This document shows, one piece after another, positions 1 to 10,892 of a DNA stretch of 64,000 nucleotides (its first letter is position 1; every line of letters begins with the position of its first letter). Source of the DNA: Ostreococcus lucimarinus. Its lineage: Eukaryota. Position numbers and translations under genes: made by a program. The DNA lies in the NCBI GenBank assembly GCA_000092065.1, contig CP000587.1; one strand, 5' to 3'. Below the pieces are notes generated by a model that was not told the origin of the DNA, did no database searches, and saw only the letters and a list, made by a program, of their open reading frames with translations.

Positions 1-182
1 CGCACGACGCGCTCGGCGAGCAGACGATTCGGCACCGAAACGACGCGTGGCACTTCGACGCGTCGTCCACCGTCGCGCGCGCGCTCGCGCACGAGAATCG
101 AGGCGGCGCGCACGACGACGCGAGCGCCGCGCCGGCGGTCGTCGCGACGCGCGCGACGAGCGCGACGGCGACGAGCGCGGCG

Positions 183-752
183 GTGGATCGCGCGCGAGGC
201 ATCACACGCGCGCGCGGCGCAATGACGACGGCGACGCGCGTCGCGCGCGTCGCGCGCGCGGGACGCGCGGGCGCGGACGCGCGTCGAACGACGCGACGCG
301 CGGGCGCGAACGCGCGTCGAACGACGCGACGCGCGACGCGCGGCGACGACGACGGCGACGGCGCCGACGACGCGCGCGGTGGTCGGTTTTACGCGTACGA
401 CGCTCGAACGTGGCGCGCGTTCGAGGACGCGTTCGGCCGGTGGCCCGCCGAGGCGTGGTTCGCGCCGTTGCAGGCGTCGATCGCGATCGCGCTCGCGGGC
501 GTCGTCGACGCGGGGTACAGCGGCGATTGGTCGCGCGTCGGCGCGCTGACGACGGAGCAAGAAGCGTGGACGAGACGATTCGTCGCGTTCGTCGCCGTGG
601 CGCACGGCGTCGTGGGCGCGATCGCGAGGGATGTCGCGCTGAAGCGCGGCGCGGACGCGACGAGCGCGAACGCGGCGTTCGCGAAGACGTTCGTCGTCGG
701 GTTCGTGGGACTCGTCGAGGCGGCGTTCGGCGGCGACGACGAAGACGCGTGA
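183..752 (+). CDS. hypothetical protein (C-terminal part; start uncertain, may lie upstream of the window)
   Basis: ORF with normal, partly hydrophobic composition in its last ~110 aa (FYAYDARTWRAFEDAFGRWPAEAWFAPLQ...). The N-terminal part is Arg/Ala-rich and contains a ~33-bp tandem duplication around 277-343. No family recognised. Confidence 0.3.
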   Translation: MDRARGITRARGAMTTATRVARVARAGRAGADARRTTRRAGANARRTTRRATRGDDDGDGADDARGGRFYAYDARTWRAFEDAFGRWPAEAWFAPLQASIAIALAGVVDAGYSGDWSRVGALTTEQEAWTRRFVAFVAVAHGVVGAIARDVALKRGADATSANAAFAKTFVVGFVGLVEAAFGGDDEDA

Positions 753-943
753 CGGAGGATCGACGTTCGCGGCGCGTTCGACGCGAATGACTGTAGCGTA
801 ATGTTGTTTTAAATCTTTCATCGTGTACACTATCGCAGCGCGGCGGTGCGGTCGAGCGAAATTCGAATCAGGGCGACGCGTCGGCGTCGAGCGCTCGGAG
901 CGAGCGAACCGCGCGTCACAGTTCGTCGCGCGCGCCGCTCGTG

Positions 944-1186
944 ATGTCTGGCGAACAAGCCGGTCCTTCATTTGTGACGCCCGGCGACGCCGCCGCGCCG
1001 TCCGTGGTGACGACGGAGCTGATACAAAAGTATTTGGATGAGAATCAGCAACTGATTCTCGCGATCCTTGAGAATCAAAACGTCGGCAAGCTCGCGGAGT
1101 GCGCCAAGTATCAGACCAAACTGCAGGAAAACTTGATGTACCTAGCCGCCATAGCGGATGCGAAGCCGGCGGAGCCGTCGGAATAG
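944..1186 (+). CDS. small SSXT/SNH-domain protein (SS18 / GRF-INTERACTING FACTOR-like)
   Basis: TTELIQKYLDENQQLILAILENQNVGKLAECAKYQTKLQENLMYLAAIADAKP matches the SNH (SSXT N-terminal) consensus of plant GIF1/AN3 and animal SS18 almost residue for residue. The ATG lies 3 nt after the GTG used by the ORF track. Confidence 0.7.
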   Translation: MSGEQAGPSFVTPGDAAAPSVVTTELIQKYLDENQQLILAILENQNVGKLAECAKYQTKLQENLMYLAAIADAKPAEPSE

Positions 1187-1268
1187 CGCGCACCGCGCTC
1201 GCAGCGGTCGTTTTGTAATGATTAGGAAGGAGTTTAGTACCAGTCGCGAGCGGCGTGATATTAAAAGT

Positions 1269-2588
1269 TTACGTTTGGACAATGGTTTGGATCGATGGAT
1301 CGATCCCGACGGAAAGACCTCGCGCCTCGATCATTTTCGTCAGTGCGTTGTACAGTGCGACGATGTGCGCGTCGCTCGCGAGCTCTATTTTCGTCAAGAG
1401 CGCGCCCAGCGTCAAGGAGCCGCCGACGTGCGTGATAAAGTTGGAGAGGTAGAGCGAGGAGAAGCACGAATTGATGACTTGGCAGTCCATGCGATCGGTG
1501 ATACCGCCGTGTCCGGGAATGGTTGCCGCGAAGTCTTTAATCTTGAACGCGCGCTTGAACCCAGAGGCGAAAAAGCCGCCAAACGGCGCGACGGCGCTCG
1601 CAAAGGTGCCGAGCGCGAGCGAGTGCACCATGAACATCGAGCAACGTACGGTGGCGATGCCGGTCAACTTGGTCGCCAGAGGACCGACGACGGTGCCGAG
1701 AAACATGGTGATCGGTTTATCGGACACGATGAACGGCTCGTTGGGAGCACAAATTTTGGCGCTCCGAGAAAAGATACCTCGAAAGTACATGTCGCCGCTC
1801 GGCGGACACGTAAAGTAACTAAACTTCTGCAAGTAAGACGCCATAGCCAGCGCAGCGACGAGAGTCGAAACAAACGCGCCCAAAAATCCTTCCCACGTCT
1901 TGTTGGGTGAAATCTTAATCAAAGGCGTCTTGCCGAAGATTTTCCCGAACACGTACGCCATGATGTCGTTGACGATGACGAGAAAGAGTGGAAACACGAA
2001 CCATATCATACCCTCTAAAAGATTGGAAACGTTGAAGTATCCCGTCATCGTCGTCGCCGCGACGATCATGTGCGTCCAAGCGAACTGTGCGAACTGATAC
2101 GCGTATCGCCCTTTCCTCAGCGTGAGCACGAAATACACCAATCCCACGAGATAGGCGCAATAGCTCAAAAACGTGTGGTGCATCGCCAACCAAGCTCCGG
2201 GGCTCACTTCGGCCCCGTTTTGTAACAACTCGTTCCACTCCTTCGCGCTCATGAACCCAAGATATAAGTACTTTGCGAATCTTCCGTACACCGCGAACGA
2301 CAGCGTCCAAAACCAGTACCACCGCAGCGTCGTCGTCGTCCTTCGCAACGCCGCCGTATCTTCCCCCGGCGCGTTCTCCTCCGCGTGCGCGTTCGACACG
2401 AACGCAAACAACTCCTTCGCCATCGCGAACTGCACCGCAAAGCACAGCATCATCGCGTACGCGTGTCCTCCGACGATGATGCTCGACGCGGCCGCGAGCA
2501 TGAGCAGCGTCGACTGCGTGCGCTGCCGCAGGCTTCGCCATCGCGCCCGCCCCTGCTCGATCACGCGCTTGGCGTGATCGATCGACAC
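1269..2588 (-). CDS. CDS1: phosphatidate cytidylyltransferase (CDP-diacylglycerol synthase)
   Basis: Multi-pass membrane protein with the eukaryotic CDS signature region FVFPLFLVIVNDIMAYVFGKIFGKTPLIKISPNKTWEGFLGAF and the C-terminal GGxxDRxD-like block (GHGGITDRMDCQ). Confidence 0.9.
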   Translation of the reverse strand: MSIDHAKRVIEQGRARWRSLRQRTQSTLLMLAAASSIIVGGHAYAMMLCFAVQFAMAKELFAFVSNAHAEENAPGEDTAALRRTTTTLRWYWFWTLSFAVYGRFAKYLYLGFMSAKEWNELLQNGAEVSPGAWLAMHHTFLSYCAYLVGLVYFVLTLRKGRYAYQFAQFAWTHMIVAATTMTGYFNVSNLLEGMIWFVFPLFLVIVNDIMAYVFGKIFGKTPLIKISPNKTWEGFLGAFVSTLVAALAMASYLQKFSYFTCPPSGDMYFRGIFSRSAKICAPNEPFIVSDKPITMFLGTVVGPLATKLTGIATVRCSMFMVHSLALGTFASAVAPFGGFFASGFKRAFKIKDFAATIPGHGGITDRMDCQVINSCFSSLYLSNFITHVGGSLTLGALLTKIELASDAHIVALYNALTKMIEARGLSVGIDPSIQTIVQT

Positions 2589-2922
2589 CCGCCGCTTCGG
2601 CGCGCGCGGCGAGGACGGCGACGGCGGTTGATCATCCTGCGCGCGCGCGTCCGTCCGTCAGTCCTCTCGTCGCGTCCGCGCGCGGTCGCGCATCGCGGCA
2701 GCGCGTCCCAACGGCATTCTCCATCGACGCCGCGCCGCGTCGCGCGCGCGCGCCTCGTCGTCGCGCGCGTCGGCGCGCGCACCTCGTGTGCCCTGCTCCG
2801 CGACGCCGTCGTCGCGAGCGGCGTCTTCGCGCGCTTGCGCAGCTCGACCATGACGCGCGCGCGACTGCCGCGAGCGCCAGTGCGCGACGGGGCGCCGTCG
2901 CGGCCCGCCGTCGCGCGAACGC

Positions 2923-3049
2923 ATGCGCGCGCGACGCGACGACGACGACGACGATGACGACGACGCGCTCGAGCGCGTGCGTCGCGCGCGCGACGTCGTG
3001 GACGAGACGCTCGATTGTTTAGGCGTGAAGCGACGACCGAACGATGACG

Positions 3050-3082
<33 letters not shown>

Positions 3083-4593
3083 CGATGGACGTCGACGCGA
3101 ACGGGATCGGCGACGACGCGCTCGCGCGGCGAGGGAAACGGTCGCGGAAGGCGAGCGAGGTGATGGACGCGATGTCGAAGTTGAGTCTGGCGTTCGCGGC
3201 GGGACGCCGAGGCGAAGGCGAAGGCGCGGCGCCGACGACGCGCTCGAGCGCGGTGCGAAGGGCGACGATAGATTTGGGGTTAGACGATTTTAAGGCGTTG
3301 GATGGGGCGAACGCGATGGCCGAGGCGGCGATGGAGGACGCGGCGCGAGGGCGGGATTTGGAGTTGGAGGTGCGACGACCGCGCGACGAGACGGCGTGGT
3401 TGCTCGAACGCGCGTTGCGAGGGACGTTTGGAGGCGCGTCGAGCAGCGTCGATCGATTGACGTCGCTCACGCTTCGTGGAGGGAAAGGGCTGAGCGCGGA
3501 AGGGTTCGGGCGATTGATCAGCGCGCTGACGGACGCGCGGTCGTTGAAGAAGTTGGATTTATCTGCGTGCGGCTTGAGCGCGAGCGCCGGTGAACGCATC
3601 GCCGCCGTGCTGGACGAAAACGGTTGTCCGCTGGAGAGATTAGATCTCAGAGGAAATGCTATCGGAGCCGAGGGGACGTTGGCGCTCGCGAGCGCGCTGC
3701 GTAAGACGAAGACGCTCAAATCGTTGAATTTGGCGCAAAATTTAATCGGTGGCGACGGCCTTCGCGCTTTGGCGTCTGCACTCGCGGGCGAGACGAGCAT
3801 GGAAGAACTCGATATTCAACACAACGGATGCGGCGACGAAGGGTGCATGGCGCTCGCAACGCACGGTTTCGGTAGCAGGTTGGAGACTTTATTACTCGGT
3901 TTCAACGGCATTGGCGCTCAAGGCGCCCGGGCGATCGCCGAAGCCTTGCGCAAGCGACGCCGATCGGATGACGATGACGACATGGACACTCACGAACTAG
4001 ACGACGAAACCATCAATCGCGCGTCGAAAATCATGCGAAGACTCGATTTGAAGTGTAACGTGGTGGGTTCGGAGGGCGCGCACGCGATGGCCGACGCGTT
4101 GAACGACGTCGAAGACTTGGACTTGTCAAACAACTCGGTGCGCGACGGCGCAAAATGGCTCGCGAAGTCGCTCAAGTCCGGCGCGTCGAACTTGAAGCAA
4201 CTCAATCTTCAAGCGAACGAAATGACGGACGACGACGCGTGGTACATCGCCGACGCACTGGGGGAAAACAAGACTCTGAAGACGCTCAATCTGGGATCGA
4301 ACGCGTTTGGCGATTCCGCCGCGTCCGACATAGCCAGCGATCTTCGCGAAAACATCGCGCTCGAGACGTTAGATTTGACGCGCAACGGCATCGGACGCGA
4401 GGGCGCGTGCGAACTCATGGACGCCATGGATGAAAACACCACGCTCAGGAGACTCGGGCTGGAGAGTAATCTCATACCCGCCGAGACGACGATGGAGATG
4501 AAACGCCGCGTGGGCATTCGAGCGCAGTGCGATTGGCAGCGCGCCGGTTTCAGCGACGCGTCCGCCGCGCGAGCACCGATGAAATTCAATTGA
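2923..4593 (+). CDS. RNI-like (ribonuclease-inhibitor type) leucine-rich-repeat protein
   Basis: About 12 repeats of the 28-29 aa RI/NLRC-type LRR (LxxLDLxxNxIGxxGaxaLaxaL...), e.g. LERLDLRGNAIGAEGTLALASALRKTKTLKSLNLAQNLIGGDGLRALASAL. Acidic, T-rich N-terminus. Confidence 0.8.
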
Positions 4594-5183
4594 TCCGCAC
4601 ATCGCGCCGACTCGACGCATCCATTCTCTCGGCCATCGCGCGCGACGCGCTCGCGCTCGCGCGCTCGTCTCGATTCGCCTCGTCGCCGACGTCGTCACGC
4701 GCCCGACAGCGCCCACACGCACGCCCTCGACGTCGCCGCCAGCGCCGCCCGCCGCGCCCACGAGTGTCTCGCCACCACGCGCGCGACCTCGACCGCGACC
4801 TCCAGCGCCGCGCGCGCGCGTTTCGCGATCCTTCTCGCGCGCGTCCTCGTCCCGCGTCGTCTCGCCGCGTCTCGACACATCGCGCGCGCGCGCCGTTCGC
4901 TCATCGTCGACGCGCCGCGTCCGACCATGAGCTCCGCGACGAACCATCGCGCGGCGTCGTCCGCGTCCTCGGCGCGCACCGCGATCCATCCCTCGTCGTC
5001 GTCGTCGTCGTCGTCGTCGTCCATCCGTCGCGAAGTGTCGATCCGTCTCGCGGTCTCGTATACGACGCACAACACGGACGGCGCGGCGCGACCGACGCGC
5101 GCGCGCGCGGCGCGACCTCCGTCTTTTCCGAGCGCGCGCGTAACGACGCAGCCTTTGCCGAACGCGCCGACGGAACGCACGCG

Positions 5184-5205
5184 ATGCAAATTTTCGTCAA
5201 GACAC
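5184..5205 (+). CDS. RPS27A: ubiquitin-40S ribosomal protein S27a fusion, exon 1 (MQIFVKT + 1 nt)
   Basis: ATGCAAATTTTCGTCAAGACAC encodes MQIFVKT, followed by GTGCGTGA (donor). It is in frame with the stop-terminated ORF 4527..5213, but the ubiquitin sequence continues only after an intron. Confidence 0.85.
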
Positions 5206-5473
5206 GTGCGTGATCGAGCGACGCGACGCGACGCGACGCGACCGCGCGCGGACGAGGGATGGCGACGGTCGATAGATTAGGGTTTTCGACGATGCGACGT
5301 CGACGGCGCGCGCGCGGACGCGCGCGCGCGCGCGAGGCACGCGCGGTGCGCTCGAAGATTTTCGCTCGCGCGCGACGTTCGGGGAGGGACGACGGGCGCG
5401 AGTCGACGGGGGTGGTGCGACGCGATCGATGATGGATCGGACGAGGGACGGGGGACGCGGGACGCGGGACTGA

Positions 5474-5935
<462 letters not shown>

Positions 5936-5971
5936 ACGGAGCGTGTGAGTCGTTCTAGAGTGATTAACGCT

Positions 5972-5976
5972 TGTAA
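5972..5976 (+). terminator. putative chlorophyte-type poly(A) signal TGTAA
   Basis: TGTAA lies 37 nt downstream of the RPS27A stop codon. UGUAA is the established poly(A) signal of green algae. Confidence 0.35.
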
Positions 5977-6010
5977 AGAATGATGGAAATGCTACAAATC
6001 TCGTGCTAGA

Positions 6011-7069
6011 CTACCGCAAGGCGCTCTCGTCCTTGACGCCATAAATTTCGTCGTAACGCTTGTGACTGCGCGCTAAATCGACCACACCGCTCGCCCCAAA
6101 AAGACGCTCCACCGTTGCCGACGCGCACTGCTGCGTGGCGGTCGCGTCGTCGACACCGTGATACTCTCTGACGACTTTCGCCAACGCGTCGCACGGCACA
6201 AAGAGCACGCGCGGCCCTTCGTCCCCCAGAAACTTTTCGCCTCCGGGCTGGGAAAGCCGACAACACGCCATCGCGTGCGGCTCATCCATCGTGCTCACCT
6301 CTCGTCCGGTGTCGCTATTCAACACGTTGATCGGTCGCAATCGCTTGCACTCGACGACGCGAGTCGATCCGAGCACGTCGGCTTCGACGGCTTTCGCCGC
6401 CGCCTCGTCCGTCGTCTTTAGCAATCTGATCGCCTCCTTCCCACTCGTCGTCGCCTGCGTGGACGACCACAGACGAAACAAAAAGTAGTACAACGGAAAG
6501 TTACTGACCGGCGTCAAGAACATGGGCATGCTCAACGGCGCACCGAGCGCGTACATCGTCGTCGCCGCGCGCGCGTTCTTCGTCCCGTCGACGACGGTTC
6601 GCTCCACCAGCCTCCGCACCGCCCCCACGTCCACCCCGCTCGGGTACACGATCTCCACGCTCGACAGTATCTTCGGCATCTCCTTCAGCGCGCGCTCTCG
6701 AGGATCGATCCTGTCCATCGCGAACATCCCGAGCTCGTGTATCCGCCGCCTCGCCGACCCCGGCGCGCTCGCCGCCATCGCCCGCCACGTCTTCTCCCCG
6801 TAATCCACCGCCCTCGCGCCCCACCGTCGCACCCACGGCATCGCGCGATCGATCGTCCGCATCGCGCGCGTCGCCATCGTCCCGTTCGCGTCGTCGGCGC
6901 GTCCCATCGCTTCGCGCGCGCGCGCTTCCGCGGGCTCGACGACCGCCGCGCCGTGCGCCATCCATCGGTGCCCCTCGCGCGTCGTCGTCGACGTCGACGA
7001 CGTCGCCGCGCCTCCGAACGGCACCACCACCATCCGCGCCCGCGACGCGAGCGCGCGCCGCGTCGCCAT
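6011..7069 (-). CDS. conserved hypothetical protein (possibly organelle-targeted)
   Basis: 352-aa ORF with complex, non-repetitive composition in its C-terminal 250 aa (…FPLYYFLFRLWSSTQATTSGKEAIRLLK…VLFVPCDALAKVVREYHG…) and an Arg/Ala-rich presequence-like N-terminus. No family recognised. Confidence 0.5.
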   Translation of the reverse strand: MATRRALASRARMVVVPFGGAATSSTSTTTREGHRWMAHGAAVVEPAEARAREAMGRADDANGTMATRAMRTIDRAMPWVRRWGARAVDYGEKTWRAMAASAPGSARRRIHELGMFAMDRIDPRERALKEMPKILSSVEIVYPSGVDVGAVRRLVERTVVDGTKNARAATTMYALGAPLSMPMFLTPVSNFPLYYFLFRLWSSTQATTSGKEAIRLLKTTDEAAAKAVEADVLGSTRVVECKRLRPINVLNSDTGREVSTMDEPHAMACCRLSQPGGEKFLGDEGPRVLFVPCDALAKVVREYHGVDDATATQQCASATVERLFGASGVVDLARSHKRYDEIYGVKDESALR

Positions 7070-7434
7070 CGCGCGCGCGCCGCGGTCTCGCGCGGCGGCC
7101 GTCGCGGCGTCGCGCGCGCGCGCCCGTAACCACCCGCGCGACGCCCGCGTCGTCGGTGATGCATCGTCGCGCGCATTCGCGTCGCGCGATGGGTCTCGAA
7201 CGCCTCGACTACGACGCCAGCGTGGCCGACTTTTTTATTTTTTATCAGATATTTTCGCGCGCCCCGAGATCTCGTAGTGTGCGCTTTCCGAACGGTATGT
7301 GCGTGCGCGACCATCGACGTCGCGTCGTCGACGTAACGCGCGATGGCGTCGTCACGCCGACGCGCCGTCGCGCGCGCCGCACACGACCGCGCGCGCGCCG
7401 GAATCTCGCGCGCGTCGCGACGGACGCGCGAACG

Positions 7435-8799
7435 ATGGCCGATTGCACCGTCGCCGTCGCGGAACGCGTCGACGAGGGCGCGCGCGACGCGAAAACGGGC
7501 GCGGATTCCACGACGCGCGCGACGCATGACGTCGATGGCGCGCGCGACGCGATCGACGACGACGGCGACGAGGGCGCGCGCGAGGGCGCGATGGCGACGC
7601 GAGACGCGACGGACGACGCGACGTTGGACGACGAACCAGCGCGGGACGCGAAGGGGAGCGATTCGCGGGAACGCACGGTGTTCATCGGCGGGACGAGCCA
7701 CGAGTGCGACGAGGCGCGCGTGCGCAGATTCTTCGAGGAGGAACACGACGCGAAGGTGGAGAACGTGAAGCTGATATACGATCGACAGACGCTGGTGAGG
7801 AAGGGATACGGGTTCGTGAAGTTTTACAGCGTCGAGGACGCGGCGCGGGTGAAGGCGATGGGGAAGGTGACGATCGACGGGAAGGCGGTGGACGCGAAGG
7901 AGGCGACGCGGGACGAACCGGCGAGCGCGGGAGAGGGACGAACGCGGGAGGGAAGACACGAGCGCACGCGATCGCACGGGAGCGGGAAAATGTCTCGGGG
8001 GAGTTCGCACAACTCGCTGAGCGAACACATGGGGCGGATGTCGGTCGGGAACGGGGCGAGAGTCTCGGGAGGGGCGCCGCAGCGACACCCCGCGGGGGGG
8101 GCGCCGCATCTTCGCGGCGCCAAGGCGTCCAAGGCGCAGTTGTCTCGATCGCCGAATTACGTCGGTGGGCTGGACGACGGGGCGAGCGGGAGCGAGAGCG
8201 GTGAACGATCGAACAGTGGCGCGCCGGGGACGGAGAACACCGTCTTTTGCGGGGGGCTTCCGCTGGAAGCCACGCCCGAGGCGCTCGGGTGGTTCTTCGC
8301 GCACTACGGCACCGTGCTCAGCGTAAAGCTGATTTACGACAAGCTCACCGGTGCGTGCAAGGGGTACGGCTTCGTCGTCTTCGCCGACGTCGCGATCGCC
8401 GAAATGGTCAAGGCACAGCGCCAAATTCCGTTCCTCGGGAAGATGATCGACGTGAGCGAGGCGATGCGTCACGTGGGGCGCCACGACGACGGACGAGGCT
8501 TCGCGCCGGGCGCGCAGTACGGCACCAAGCGCGCGATGGGTTACGGATCTCAAGGGCCATTTTACCCGCCGCAGATGTCCATGTACCCACCGCACATGGT
8601 CATGCCGCCGCACATGGCCATGGGGGGGCAAAATCCTCACATGGCTATGATGGCGATGCACCACATGCAGTTCGCGGGCTACCCGATGTACGCCAACGGA
8701 GCGACGGTGTACGGCATGCCTGGCGAGCATGTCGAAGACGACGAAGAAGACAGCGATGAAGTCGCGGCCGAGGGCGAAACTGTTGCCGCTTCCGAATAG
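7435..8799 (+). CDS. RNA-binding protein with two RRM domains and a Met/Pro/His-rich C-terminus
   Basis: Two RRMs with RNP1/RNP2: TVFIGG…KGYGFVKFYSVEDA and TVFCGGLP…KGYGFVVFADVAIA. The C-terminus is low complexity (PPQMSMYPPHMVMPPHMAMGGQNPHMAMMAMHHMQFAGYPMY). The start is set at the in-frame ATG (MADCTV…) rather than the ORF-track start at 7156, which is preceded by an Arg-rich stretch. Confidence 0.75.
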   Translation: MADCTVAVAERVDEGARDAKTGADSTTRATHDVDGARDAIDDDGDEGAREGAMATRDATDDATLDDEPARDAKGSDSRERTVFIGGTSHECDEARVRRFFEEEHDAKVENVKLIYDRQTLVRKGYGFVKFYSVEDAARVKAMGKVTIDGKAVDAKEATRDEPASAGEGRTREGRHERTRSHGSGKMSRGSSHNSLSEHMGRMSVGNGARVSGGAPQRHPAGGAPHLRGAKASKAQLSRSPNYVGGLDDGASGSESGERSNSGAPGTENTVFCGGLPLEATPEALGWFFAHYGTVLSVKLIYDKLTGACKGYGFVVFADVAIAEMVKAQRQIPFLGKMIDVSEAMRHVGRHDDGRGFAPGAQYGTKRAMGYGSQGPFYPPQMSMYPPHMVMPPHMAMGGQNPHMAMMAMHHMQFAGYPMYANGATVYGMPGEHVEDDEEDSDEVAAEGETVAASE

Positions 8800-8914
8800 A
8801 CGAGCGACTCTTTTTACTCGCTACGCTACGCTACGCACTACAACACACTACAAAAAAACGCCGCAGAAAAATAGAACGATAGATCCGCCATGTCATCACA
8901 CTCTCGCCTCTTGT

Positions 8915-9838
8915 TCAACGAAGTCGCTCATCGAGGCGCGAATCGTCTAAAAGCACTCTGGAATCGAGCTGCTTGTTATGCTTGCCCTGTCGTCGACTTT
9001 CGTACGATTCAAATCCATCCGTTCGCTTCAAAGTGCCGACGTCCACGAGAGTTCGTCTCAGGCTCAGCGTCGTCAACCGATCGCACGCGAGCAAAATTTC
9101 TCCCGGCACGCCGTCGCACTTCGTGTCGTCCACATCTATTTCCTTCAGCTTGACCGCGTGCGCCCACGCCACCGGCAACGCGCCACGCATTTCACGATTA
9201 CGCGCGAAACGAATGACCTCTAAATCAGCGCAATTCCCGAGTCCGGCGATCGCGTCGTCGAACGTCGTCAGCGCGTTCGCGCTCGCGTCCAACCGTCGAA
9301 GCCTTTTGCATTTCCCGAGCGTCCGCGGCAGCGCTCGCAGCGCGTTCTCGCGCACGTCCAAATCTTCGAGCGCGAGCAACGAATCGATGTCTTCCGGCAG
9401 CGCCGTCAATTTATTCCCTCGCAAGTCCAGCGTCTTCAAGTTGACGAGCGTCGAAAAGGCGCGCGGCAGCGCTCTCACCGCGTTGAAGCTCAGGTTCACC
9501 TTTTGCGCGTTTCGCAAGCTTCCGATCGCGTCGTCGACGTCGACGATGGCGTTCGACGCCAAGTCGAGCACGCGCACGCGCGCGCCGACGTCGCGTTCGA
9601 AGACGTACGGCGGCACGCGCGCGTGCCGCGCGTCGCGTTCGGTGACGATTCCGGTCGCCAGAGCCGTCTTCTTTCGCGATTCTTCGGCGTTCGCGCGGTT
9701 ACGCGATCGCCAGGCCGCGTCCCAGGCCGCGTCGACGCTCGACGTGACCTCGTTCCAGGCGTTCGCGACGCGGGCGAAGACTTCGTCGACGGACATGGAC
9801 GAGACGCCGCCGCGCGGCGTCCGGCGAGTGAGGCGCAC
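8915..9838 (-). CDS. leucine-rich repeat protein (SDS22/PIRL-like 22-24 aa LRRs)
   Basis: Tandem LxxLxLxxNxIxxLP repeats: LDLASNAIVDVDDAIGSLRNAQKVNLSFNAVRALPRAFSTLVNLKTLDLRGNKLTALPEDIDSLLALEDLDVRENALRALP…. Confidence 0.8.
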   Translation of the reverse strand: MRLTRRTPRGGVSSMSVDEVFARVANAWNEVTSSVDAAWDAAWRSRNRANAEESRKKTALATGIVTERDARHARVPPYVFERDVGARVRVLDLASNAIVDVDDAIGSLRNAQKVNLSFNAVRALPRAFSTLVNLKTLDLRGNKLTALPEDIDSLLALEDLDVRENALRALPRTLGKCKRLRRLDASANALTTFDDAIAGLGNCADLEVIRFARNREMRGALPVAWAHAVKLKEIDVDDTKCDGVPGEILLACDRLTTLSLRRTLVDVGTLKRTDGFESYESRRQGKHNKQLDSRVLLDDSRLDERLR

Positions 9839-9914
9839 GACCGGACGCGCGGCGGGAAGAATGTGCGTAGAATTACAACGATGCCGGAGCGATTAAAGAA
9901 TGGTGCGCGATCGA

Positions 9915-10892
9915 TCATCGCGCGCTGGCGACGCGCGAGGCGATGTCGGCGTGACATCCCGTTTGCTCTGGCGACAGCACGCGAACGCGTTCGCATCGCT
10001 CGGCGCACGAGTTGTCGTATCGACTGTCGCGCACGCCGACGCACGGGCAGTCCTCCGCCTCGCCCACGCCACCGTCTGGAGTGCGTTTGAAGCATTGGAC
10101 GACCTGGAGAAGCACGCACGATTTCGTGCACCCGAGCGCGACTTTGGACGCGCCGCCGAACGCCTGTTGCGCGTCCGCCAACGAGAGCTCCGATCCCGTC
10201 GCCTCCAGCAAAACTTCCGGCGTCCCGAGCGCCTCGGCGAGCGCAAACGTGACGTTATAGAACTCGCGTTGCGTCATCCCGCGCGTCGTTCCCTCGACGT
10301 CGATCCACGATGCGCACGTTCCGTGTTTCGCCCACTCGTGCGCGCCCAAACCGTCCCGAGTCCACGCCGGCGCGATCCTCTCCGCCGCCGCCCCGCTCGG
10401 TATCTCGCGCGCCGCGTACGTCCACTTCTCACTCGACGGGTACCACGACGGTTTGACGCAATTTTGCGGCCAGTAACACCCATCGCGCCCGTCGCTCTTC
10501 GTCGCCGTCGAGTAGCTCGGCCAGAGTCCGTGCAGCGTCAGCGCCGGTTCCGCCGCCGAGCGCGCGCACTCACCCTTCTCGCACGCTCGCGGCGCGCTCG
10601 CGCAAAACCCAGGCGTCCACGCGCGCGCGAGCTCCCACATATCGAACGCCCGTCGCGTCGCGCGCACGCCGTCGTCGCAGCCGAAGTGCGTTTTCGTCCC
10701 GACAGCGGGACAGCTCGAAGCCGACTCGACCGGCGAGGACGACGCGACGGGACGCGCGAGGACGAGCGCGATCACCAGACGAGCGAGGCGCGACTTCTGA
10801 GCGCGCGCGCGCGTCATGGCGGCGCGCGCGACGGCGCGCGCGACGGGTGAAAGGCGAGGTGTGCGGCGCGACGCGCGACGGTTGGATTTCAA
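9915..10892 (-). CDS. ribonuclease T2 family protein, secreted
   Basis: RNase T2 CAS I and CAS II active-site blocks (LTLHGLWPSYS and HEWAKHGTCAS) with conserved cysteines. N-terminal signal-peptide-like segment (LVIALVLARPVASSSP). Confidence 0.85.
   Translation of the reverse strand: MKSNRRASRRTPRLSPVARAVARAAMTRARAQKSRLARLVIALVLARPVASSSPVESASSCPAVGTKTHFGCDDGVRATRRAFDMWELARAWTPGFCASAPRACEKGECARSAAEPALTLHGLWPSYSTATKSDGRDGCYWPQNCVKPSWYPSSEKWTYAAREIPSGAAAERIAPAWTRDGLGAHEWAKHGTCASWIDVEGTTRGMTQREFYNVTFALAEALGTPEVLLEATGSELSLADAQQAFGGASKVALGCTKSCVLLQVVQCFKRTPDGGVGEAEDCPCVGVRDSRYDNSCAERCERVRVLSPEQTGCHADIASRVASAR

Follow-up and report, generated by a model that had tools for sequence, protein, structure and literature searches.

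Near the start of the 64-kb stretch of Ostreococcus lucimarinus DNA that we analysed (contig CP000587.1; hereafter, the window) lies a short gene, at positions 944..1186 on the plus strand, that encodes an SNH-only orthologue of the SS18/GIF (SMARCL) family. On its 5′ side the gene is bounded by a DUF7887 gene (183..752, plus strand; Pfam PF25397, E=2.7e-11), a neighbour that is conserved by synteny in related lineages, and an intergenic or promoter region of 191 bp (753-943) separates the end of this gene from the ATG of the SNH gene. The 3′ boundary is set by a CDP-diacylglycerol synthase gene (CTP_transf_1; CDS) in convergent orientation, which occupies 1269..2501 on the minus strand (Pfam E=5.8e-60) and has its stop codon at 1269-1271. 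The two genes lie tail to tail, and the spacer that separates their stop codons (1187..1268) measures just 82 bp and is too small to accommodate another exon. It contains the motif TGTAA at 1214-1218, which is also present in the equivalent 67 bp spacer of O. tauri, and which may be the green-algal poly(A) signal. The neighbouring CDP-diacylglycerol synthase is a 100% match to a JGI protein, and its next closest relatives, beyond its own cluster, are just 74-78% identical. One of these relatives is a 477-aa cluster, a length equal to that of an O. tauri call.

Based on the ORF list and the Pfam match, the SNH gene is a complete, single-exon CDS that runs from an ATG at 944 to a TAG at 1184-1186 and has a predicted product of 80 aa (MSGEQAGPSFVTPGDAAAPSVVTTELIQKYLDENQQLILAILENQNVGKLAECAKYQTKLQENLMYLAAIADAKPAEPSE). 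The ORF tool lists the frame as 941..1186, because the bacterial code that it applies accepts the GTG codon at 941..943 (plus strand) as a start; read from this GTG the ORF encodes 81 aa, and the ATG at 944 is the very next codon. The initial annotation adopted the same start and described an 81-aa, SNH-only protein. The SNH-only part of that description is upheld by Pfam, whereas the length should be corrected to 80 aa, given that GTG is unlikely to serve as a eukaryotic start. The peptide quoted in the same annotation (IQKYLDENQQLILAILENQNVGKLAECAKYQTKLQENLMYLAAIADAKP) is found exactly in the translated ORF. Metagenome gene callers also give 80 aa for this protein, and the SNH orthologues begin at a methionine equivalent to the ATG at 944. 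The N-terminus MS(G/N)E recurs in metagenome proteins that resemble the window protein and, as MSNE, in L009, a second Ostreococcus-like lineage, while the O. tauri protein starts with MTGA. Upstream of the ORF, the frame is first closed by a stop at 794, with no ATG in frame between this stop and 944. At the other end of the protein, only 8 residues separate the AIADA motif, which closes the SNH core, from the stop codon, in agreement with the earlier statement that a Q/G-rich tail is lacking. No NCBI or UniProt record for the exact 80-aa protein was present in the protein collection searched; the identical protein was, however, predicted by gene callers on metagenome contigs from 639 index blocks, with the same neighbours throughout.

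The SNH (SSXT) domain takes up residues 22-75 (1007..1168, plus strand) and matches Pfam SSXT (PF05030) over profile positions 4-57 of 62, with a score of 79.9 bits (cutoff 26.2) and E=9.9e-23, values that put the sequence match far beyond chance. Ahead of it lies a lead-in of 21 residues (MSGEQAGPSFVTPGDAAAPSV; 944..1006, plus strand), which varies in length and composition among lineages and appears to be disordered, with AlphaFold pLDDT values below 50 for residues 1-20. Given an alignment of 28 sequences, AlphaFold2 predicts a pair of helices, α1 at residues 24-47 (1013..1084, plus strand) and α2 at residues 50-72 (1091..1159, plus strand), with both termini (residues 1-20 and 76-80) disordered. 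The block-mean pLDDT rises from 78 over residues 21-30 to 90-96 over residues 31-70 (95-96 over residues 31-50). The protein is thus predicted to fold as a two-helix hairpin. When the model was compared with the PDB by Foldseek, no hit had an E below 2.4, and those obtained were generic helical hairpins (ESCRT-III, Vta1, and ferritins). The search gave no significant match because a helical hairpin is such a generic shape.

By sequence, a single PDB entry was matched, namely the SS18 part of 7VRB (E=6.7e-12 with the single sequence and 4.7e-20 with the profile). This entry is a fusion of residues 172-213 of BRG1, comprising the QLQ domain, to residues 14-101 of SS18, comprising the SNH domain, and in the crystal the two QLQ helices and the SS18 helices (19-39 and 44-74) together make up a four-helix bundle (PMC9117659). 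The α1 of SS18 (19-39) maps to residues 25-45 of the algal protein, and the predicted algal hairpin would agree with both α1 (19-39) and α2 (44-74) of SS18. In the same study, a triple mutant of SS18, I32E/L54E/A65E, was largely disrupted in BRG1 binding (PMC9117659). In the HMMER alignment to 7VRB, SS18 residues I32, L54, and A65 are matched by algal residues I38, L60, and A71, the first located in predicted helix α1 and the other two in predicted helix α2, which also carries the invariant NLMYLAAIAD. All three are invariant in the 28-sequence alignment, and they are among 18 invariant columns (these three plus 15 more) in an alignment across prasinophytes and streptophytes. As judged from these alignments, the residues that contact BRG1 are conserved in the algal protein.

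The orthologue on O. tauri chromosome 7 is annotated as "SSXT" (XP_003080186.1; UniProt Q015S6), with a RefSeq model of 83 aa. It is a direct orthologue, being 79% identical overall with one amino acid change in the 51-residue SNH core, and it has the same flanks (DUF7887 on one side, the convergent CDP-diacylglycerol synthase and an LRR gene on the other) and the same stop position; its N-terminal 20 and last 7 residues are, however, unlike those of the window protein. Syntenic SNH orthologues are also present in L009, where the protein is 96 aa long, and in a lower-GC relative, L102. The gene order, in which DUF7887 and SSXT are followed by the convergent CDP-diacylglycerol synthase and the LRR gene, is kept in all three, and a Micromonas-like contig, L011, retains the upstream neighbour. 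The comparison with other Mamiellophyceae that had been suggested at the outset shows that the syntenic orthologues, in O. tauri and two other lineages, likewise end just past the SNH domain. All of the O. tauri and Ostreococcus-like hits end 5-9 residues past SNH, with some ORF calls longer at the N-terminus only. Across four lineages, the stop codons (TAG, TAG, TAA, and TGA) fall 4-8 residues past AIADA, and the 3′ flanks are unalignable.

The SNH gene is under strong purifying selection. Within the 51-codon SNH core, the window and O. tauri differ by 20 synonymous codons and 1 non-synonymous codon, and the window and L009 by 26 and 1, respectively. Among the Ostreococcus-like lineages, codon differences number 20-26 synonymous versus 1-2 non-synonymous, and between these lineages and the Micromonas-like L011, 21-25 synonymous and 7 non-synonymous. 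The gene is also expressed in relatives, where MMETSP transcript ORFs designated "type:complete" are 94-99 aa long. The 99-aa ORF comes from an L009-type lineage, one ORF of 94 aa clusters with a protein of Mantoniella antarctica, and another of 94 aa clusters with XRA97457.1 of Pycnococcus provasolii, annotated as "GRF1-interacting factor". The gene is known in kind, as its orthologues have already been annotated and catalogued and its architecture has precedents. The proteins of O. tauri and Micromonas pusilla (XP_003063407.1) were catalogued as GIFs that possess MEME motifs 2 and 3 only (PMC10795294, supplementary file 9), which are said to form the SSXT domain (PMC10795294), and GIFs of O. 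tauri and O. lucimarinus have been mentioned elsewhere (PMC6507847).

We considered the possibility that the 80 codons are the first exon of a conventional GIF, with the Q/G-rich domain supplied by a downstream or upstream exon. GIF genes are indeed multi-exonic in Chlamydomonas, Volvox, Klebsormidium, and land plants (PMC6507847), and many short SNH "proteins" from metagenomes are exon-1 artefacts of prokaryotic gene callers. In addition, the Micromonas-like L011 has no in-frame ATG before SNH, so that an upstream exon probably exists in that genus. However, the stop of the convergent gene is 82 bp past that of the SNH gene, and no Q/G-rich coding window, defined as a stop-free 40-aa stretch with Q≥15% and Q+G≥35%, was found in six frames covering both strands of the 64 kb. 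The short gap and the lack of Q/G coding potential exclude a candidate tail exon nearby, and they dispose of the downstream QG-rich exon for which the initial annotation had allowed. On the 5′ side, the upstream gene ends 191 bp ahead of the ATG, and most Ostreococcus-like lineages share the MS(G/N)E-like start, with MTGA in O. tauri. The position of the stop is conserved in four stop-codon contexts, the RefSeq model of O. tauri has only 83 aa, and the complete transcript ORFs of relatives do not exceed 94-99 aa. We consider an exon-1 origin to be improbable in the extreme; it is rejected, and comes close to being refuted, on account of the 3′ boundary, the conserved stops, and the short complete models in relatives. 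We attach still less weight, and in effect none, to the idea that the locus is a decaying remnant, a non-functional pseudogene left by the truncation of what was once a full-length GIF. A truncating mutation would remove the effector domain, and the genomes of Mamiellophyceae are reduced. This reading is nonetheless refuted by the substitution pattern (20-26 synonymous versus 1-2 non-synonymous differences and, against L011, 21-25 to 7), and it also has against it the 18 columns that are invariant from prasinophytes to streptophytes, the maintenance of frame, start, and stop in at least four lineages, and transcription in relatives. We conclude that 944-1186 is a real, complete, mono-exonic, and tail-less gene.

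Tail-less members of the family have been described before. The initial annotation held that all described GIF/SS18 proteins carry a tail, which is contradicted by vertebrate SS18L2, a 77-aa, SNH-only protein, and by the GIFs of O. tauri and M. pusilla, which have the SSXT motifs only. The sequence that we took to be human SS18L2 was a 100% match to a primate entry. SS18L2, which occurs from fish to mammals, is 47% identical to the algal protein over 72 residues, in an alignment that runs end to end (E=5e-20). The two belong to the same Pfam family and have the same layout, with a short lead-in, the SNH hairpin, and, in SS18L2, some 10 residues to the stop, and at 80 aa the algal protein fits an SS18L2-type definition (~100 aa or less, with the SNH domain alone). 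They differ in that SS18L2, which is grouped with SS18 and CREST as SMARCL (PMC9170682, Table 1), is a paralogue that exists beside SS18 and SS18L1, both of which bear tails; the alga, by contrast, apparently has a single SNH gene. Furthermore, SS18L2 is poorly characterised, and the analogy is therefore of limited mechanistic weight. The SNH domain of plant GIFs is much closer to the algal protein than is SS18L2, with 75% identity over the domain for a "GRF1-interacting factor 3-like" protein of Wolffia and 60-80% identity for typical SNH proteins of 190-250 aa. For this reason, the tail-less states of the algal protein and SS18L2 most likely arose independently.

Relative to SS18 and GIF1 (AN3), the algal protein has a homologous SNH domain with conserved BRG1-contact residues and, in the predicted structure, agreeing helix boundaries, but it lacks their QPGY or QG low-complexity domain. 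In green-lineage GIFs elsewhere, the SNH domain is split over three exons (PMC6507847), whereas the algal gene is mono-exonic. A further point of comparison is Snf11 of Saccharomyces cerevisiae (169 aa), the structure of which has been determined with the QLQ domain of Snf2 (PDB 7VRC; PMC9117659). Snf11, which we propose as the functional model for the algal protein, is a small SWI/SNF subunit that has no disordered region and forms a 1:1 helical bundle with the Snf2 QLQ (PMC9117659). There is, however, no detectable sequence relationship between the two, and the resemblance is structural and functional only: a search of the PDB with the SNH profile at E≤10 did not find Snf11 (7VRC) and returned 7VRB only. 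By analogy, the algal protein would be functionally nearer to vertebrate SS18L2 or yeast Snf11 than to plant GIF1.

The interpretation that we favour, and regard as probable, is that 944-1186 is a single-copy, intronless SS18/GIF orthologue that has been reduced to its SNH domain, and that its product acts as a minimal SWI/SNF subunit that docks onto the QLQ domain of a Snf2/BRM-type ATPase. By analogy with human SS18-BRG1, and with yeast Snf11-Snf2, which is reported to be similar (PMC9117659), the SNH hairpin would pack on two short QLQ helices at the N-terminus of the ATPase to give a four-helix bundle, and the ATPase module would include the algal protein as a small, constitutive structural subunit. 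Since there is no Q/G-rich disordered region, the functions that the tail confers on SS18/GIF should be missing, and transactivation, self-association, and condensate formation would be expected to be absent. We infer that the protein binds the QLQ of Snf2 in Ostreococcus and belongs to SWI/SNF.

Published surveys bear on the availability of such a partner. SMARCA was recorded in 35 of 36 surveyed eukaryotes, with Trypanosoma brucei alone lacking it; O. tauri was among the species surveyed (PMC9170682, supplement), and SMARCL is not listed among its absences (PMC9170682, supplement). Among the genes in a tree of QLQ domains are SNF2-type genes of Micromonas RCC299 (two) and M. pusilla (one; PMC7380329, Table S1). 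In that work, SNF2 was searched for in five Phytozome algae, of which four are listed, and Ostreococcus is not among them (PMC7380329); this could mean that no Ostreococcus genome yielded a usable QLQ. Our own scan of metagenomes for Snf2-type ATPases, which targeted the helicase region of BRG1 and relied on BRG1-specific peptides, yielded 79 loci, none of them Mamiellophyceae-like; in GC content and identity they resembled metazoa, fungi, or other protists.

Two other roles for a free-standing SNH domain deserve consideration. The protein might be an adaptor for a lineage-specific transcription factor, such as a WRC protein of Mamiellophyceae, instead of or besides a Snf2 ATPase. We consider this unlikely, though it has some attractions: Pfam WRC domains have been reported in Mamiellophyceae and not in other chlorophyte classes (PMC6507847), SNH binds the QLQ of both GRFs and Snf2 ATPases (PMC7380329; PMC9117659), and the SNH surface is extremely conserved. 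In a variant of the idea, a WRC protein with a divergent QLQ-like helix that is missed by Pfam might constitute a proto GRF-GIF module. However, no protein with both QLQ and WRC was found in any chlorophyte (PMC6507847; PMC7380329), a regular-expression search of the six frames of the 64-kb window for WRC, QLQ-like, and Snf2 motif I/II/VI patterns was negative, and nothing in the data points to such a partner. Moreover, GIF function is defined by co-activation, which a tail-less protein could not provide. The earlier view that GRFs are not known from chlorophytes is borne out by two surveys covering, among others, O. lucimarinus and Micromonas (PMC6507847; PMC7380329). The second role, that of a microProtein or dominant-negative factor, would have the SNH hairpin occupy the QLQ site on an ATPase or transcription factor and thereby block a tail-bearing paralogue. 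A competitor of this sort would be expected to have just such an architecture, with a binding domain but no effector domain, and vertebrates do keep SS18L2 alongside SS18 and SS18L1 (PMC9170682, Table 1). Yet genome-wide surveys by HMMER and BLASTP list just one GIF in O. tauri and one in M. pusilla (PMC10795294, supplement), every O. tauri or Ostreococcus-like SNH hit is tail-less, and each lineage has only one copy, to which the gene is related by synteny and orthology. With a single copy per catalogued genome, there is no full-length target for a dominant-negative protein to act upon, so the suggestion in the initial annotation that the protein is "dominant-negative-like" finds no tail-bearing paralogue to support it, and we judge a role of this kind very improbable.

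The initial annotation had also raised the possibility that the bare SNH domain represents an ancestral state. When we searched 1.84 billion representative proteins exhaustively with HMMER, 579 SNH proteins were recovered at E≤0.001. Among the best 150 of these 579, most have a length of 140-250 aa, of which a Q/G/P/M-rich tail takes up 100-190 aa, and a distinct subset of the SNH proteins has tails of <15 aa. Q-rich tails are also carried by many shorter representative proteins, which may include core chlorophytes. The low-complexity region is labile in prasinophyte-like sequences. The SNH protein of Pyramimonas sp. CCMP2087 has a C-terminal P/Q-rich tail of 75 aa, and in P. parkeae a version designated P0088 has a Q/P-rich extension at the N-terminus. 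In the L009-type lineage, the lead-in is Thr/Ala-rich and variable in length. In the lower-GC syntenic relative, which is represented by two independent assemblies (L102 and L103), the ORF from the first ATG is 221 aa long and includes an N-terminal extension of 158 aa, of which 54% is Gln. The presence of Q-rich tails in streptophytes and Pyramimonas, and of the 158-aa Gln-rich extension in a syntenic relative, disfavours the ancestral-state proposal. We infer from these sequences that the bare SNH domain is probably a derived reduction in a streamlined genome, brought about by secondary loss of the low-complexity region.

A broader proposal, which we put forward as speculation and consider very unlikely, is that in Mamiellophyceae the Q-rich region has been gained, lost, and relocated freely, with the bare hairpin as the sole indispensable part and, in the boldest form of the idea, with the hairpin bridging the ATPase to a Mamiellophyceae-specific WRC-domain protein. 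If true, such a bridge would represent a precursor, in split form, of the GRF-GIF module of streptophytes, and it would explain what role chlorophyte GIFs have in the absence of GRFs, a question that has been posed in print. O. tauri is genetically tractable and could serve to test the minimal function.

The importance of the gene is modest, and it represents neither a new protein type nor a new mechanism. The probable SWI/SNF subunit described here is relevant to a question that work on GRFs and GIFs has raised, namely what chlorophyte GIFs do without a GRF (PMC6507847). In this alga the SNH hairpin alone has been retained under purifying selection, without GRFs and, apparently, without a tail-bearing paralogue, which suggests that the hairpin by itself is the indispensable part of SS18/GIF. 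The finding supports the view that the core function of the family, and an ancient one, is to dock onto the Snf2 ATPase and that the Q-rich tail is an add-on, which on that view would serve co-activation or condensates in plants and animals.

The comparison of positions 1-10000 of the window with the O. tauri chromosome 7 locus (L007), a locus from a second Ostreococcus-like lineage (L009) and one of two assemblies of a lower-GC relative (L102) revealed a collinear block, comprising an Exo_endo_phos gene, an unknown gene, the DUF7887 gene, the SSXT gene, the convergent CDP-DAG synthase gene, and a gene for an LRR protein. This collinearity is kept in at least four Ostreococcus-like and lower-GC relative lineages, despite protein identities that fall to about 40%, and only the upstream part of the block is retained on the Micromonas-like contig (L011).

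At gene 5′ ends and in intergenic regions, the window has stretches of 75-82% GC (positions 1-400, 2600-3000, and 4600-4900) made up of GACGACGCG-like units, whereas the conserved coding cores are about 50-60% GC. Around 262-340, a segment of about 40 bp occurs as two near-perfect direct copies. Because of the GC-rich stretches, both strands carry long spurious ORFs, and start codons cannot be assigned unambiguously; the CDP-DAG synthase, for example, may be read as either 410 or 439 aa.

On the 3′ side of the SSXT gene, the stop codons of the two convergent genes are only 82 bp apart, so that their very short 3′ UTRs must overlap or be shared. Within this spacer, a TGTAA pentamer (1214-1218) is found 28-32 nt 3′ of the SSXT stop codon, at a distance similar to that in O. 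tauri (about 25 nt), and it may be the green-algal poly(A) signal.

A search with the helicase region of BRG1, the human Snf2-type ATPase partner of SS18, matched PDB 23cp chain K (1595 aa; E=5e-212). The chain carries the molecule label "WD40 repeat-containing protein", but it looks like a Snf2-type ATPase under a misleading name.

The L009-type proteins (P0010-P0025) have total lengths of 96-100 aa, reflecting differences among metagenome variants in the length of a Thr/Ala run in the N-terminal lead-in. This low-complexity, length-polymorphic tract immediately precedes an otherwise invariant SNH domain.

On the Micromonas-like contig, the stretch that runs from the upstream stop to the SNH domain of the ORF (L011:4001-4243; 67.5% GC) holds no ATG in frame, and the start picked by the gene caller is non-ATG. 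It is probable that the real gene includes an exon further upstream, and the Micromonas protein may therefore be less minimal than the ORF suggests.

In both assemblies of the lower-GC relative, the syntenic SSXT orthologue (L102:4587-5252 and L103:4587-5252; 43% GC) encodes 83 aa according to the gene caller, and 221 aa when read from the first ATG. The resulting 158-residue N-terminal extension is 54% Gln, encoded by CAA repeats, with an occasional Gly. If this predicted ORF is correct, the Q-rich region of this lineage would be N-terminal to the SNH domain, on the opposite side from that of plant GIFs and animal SS18.
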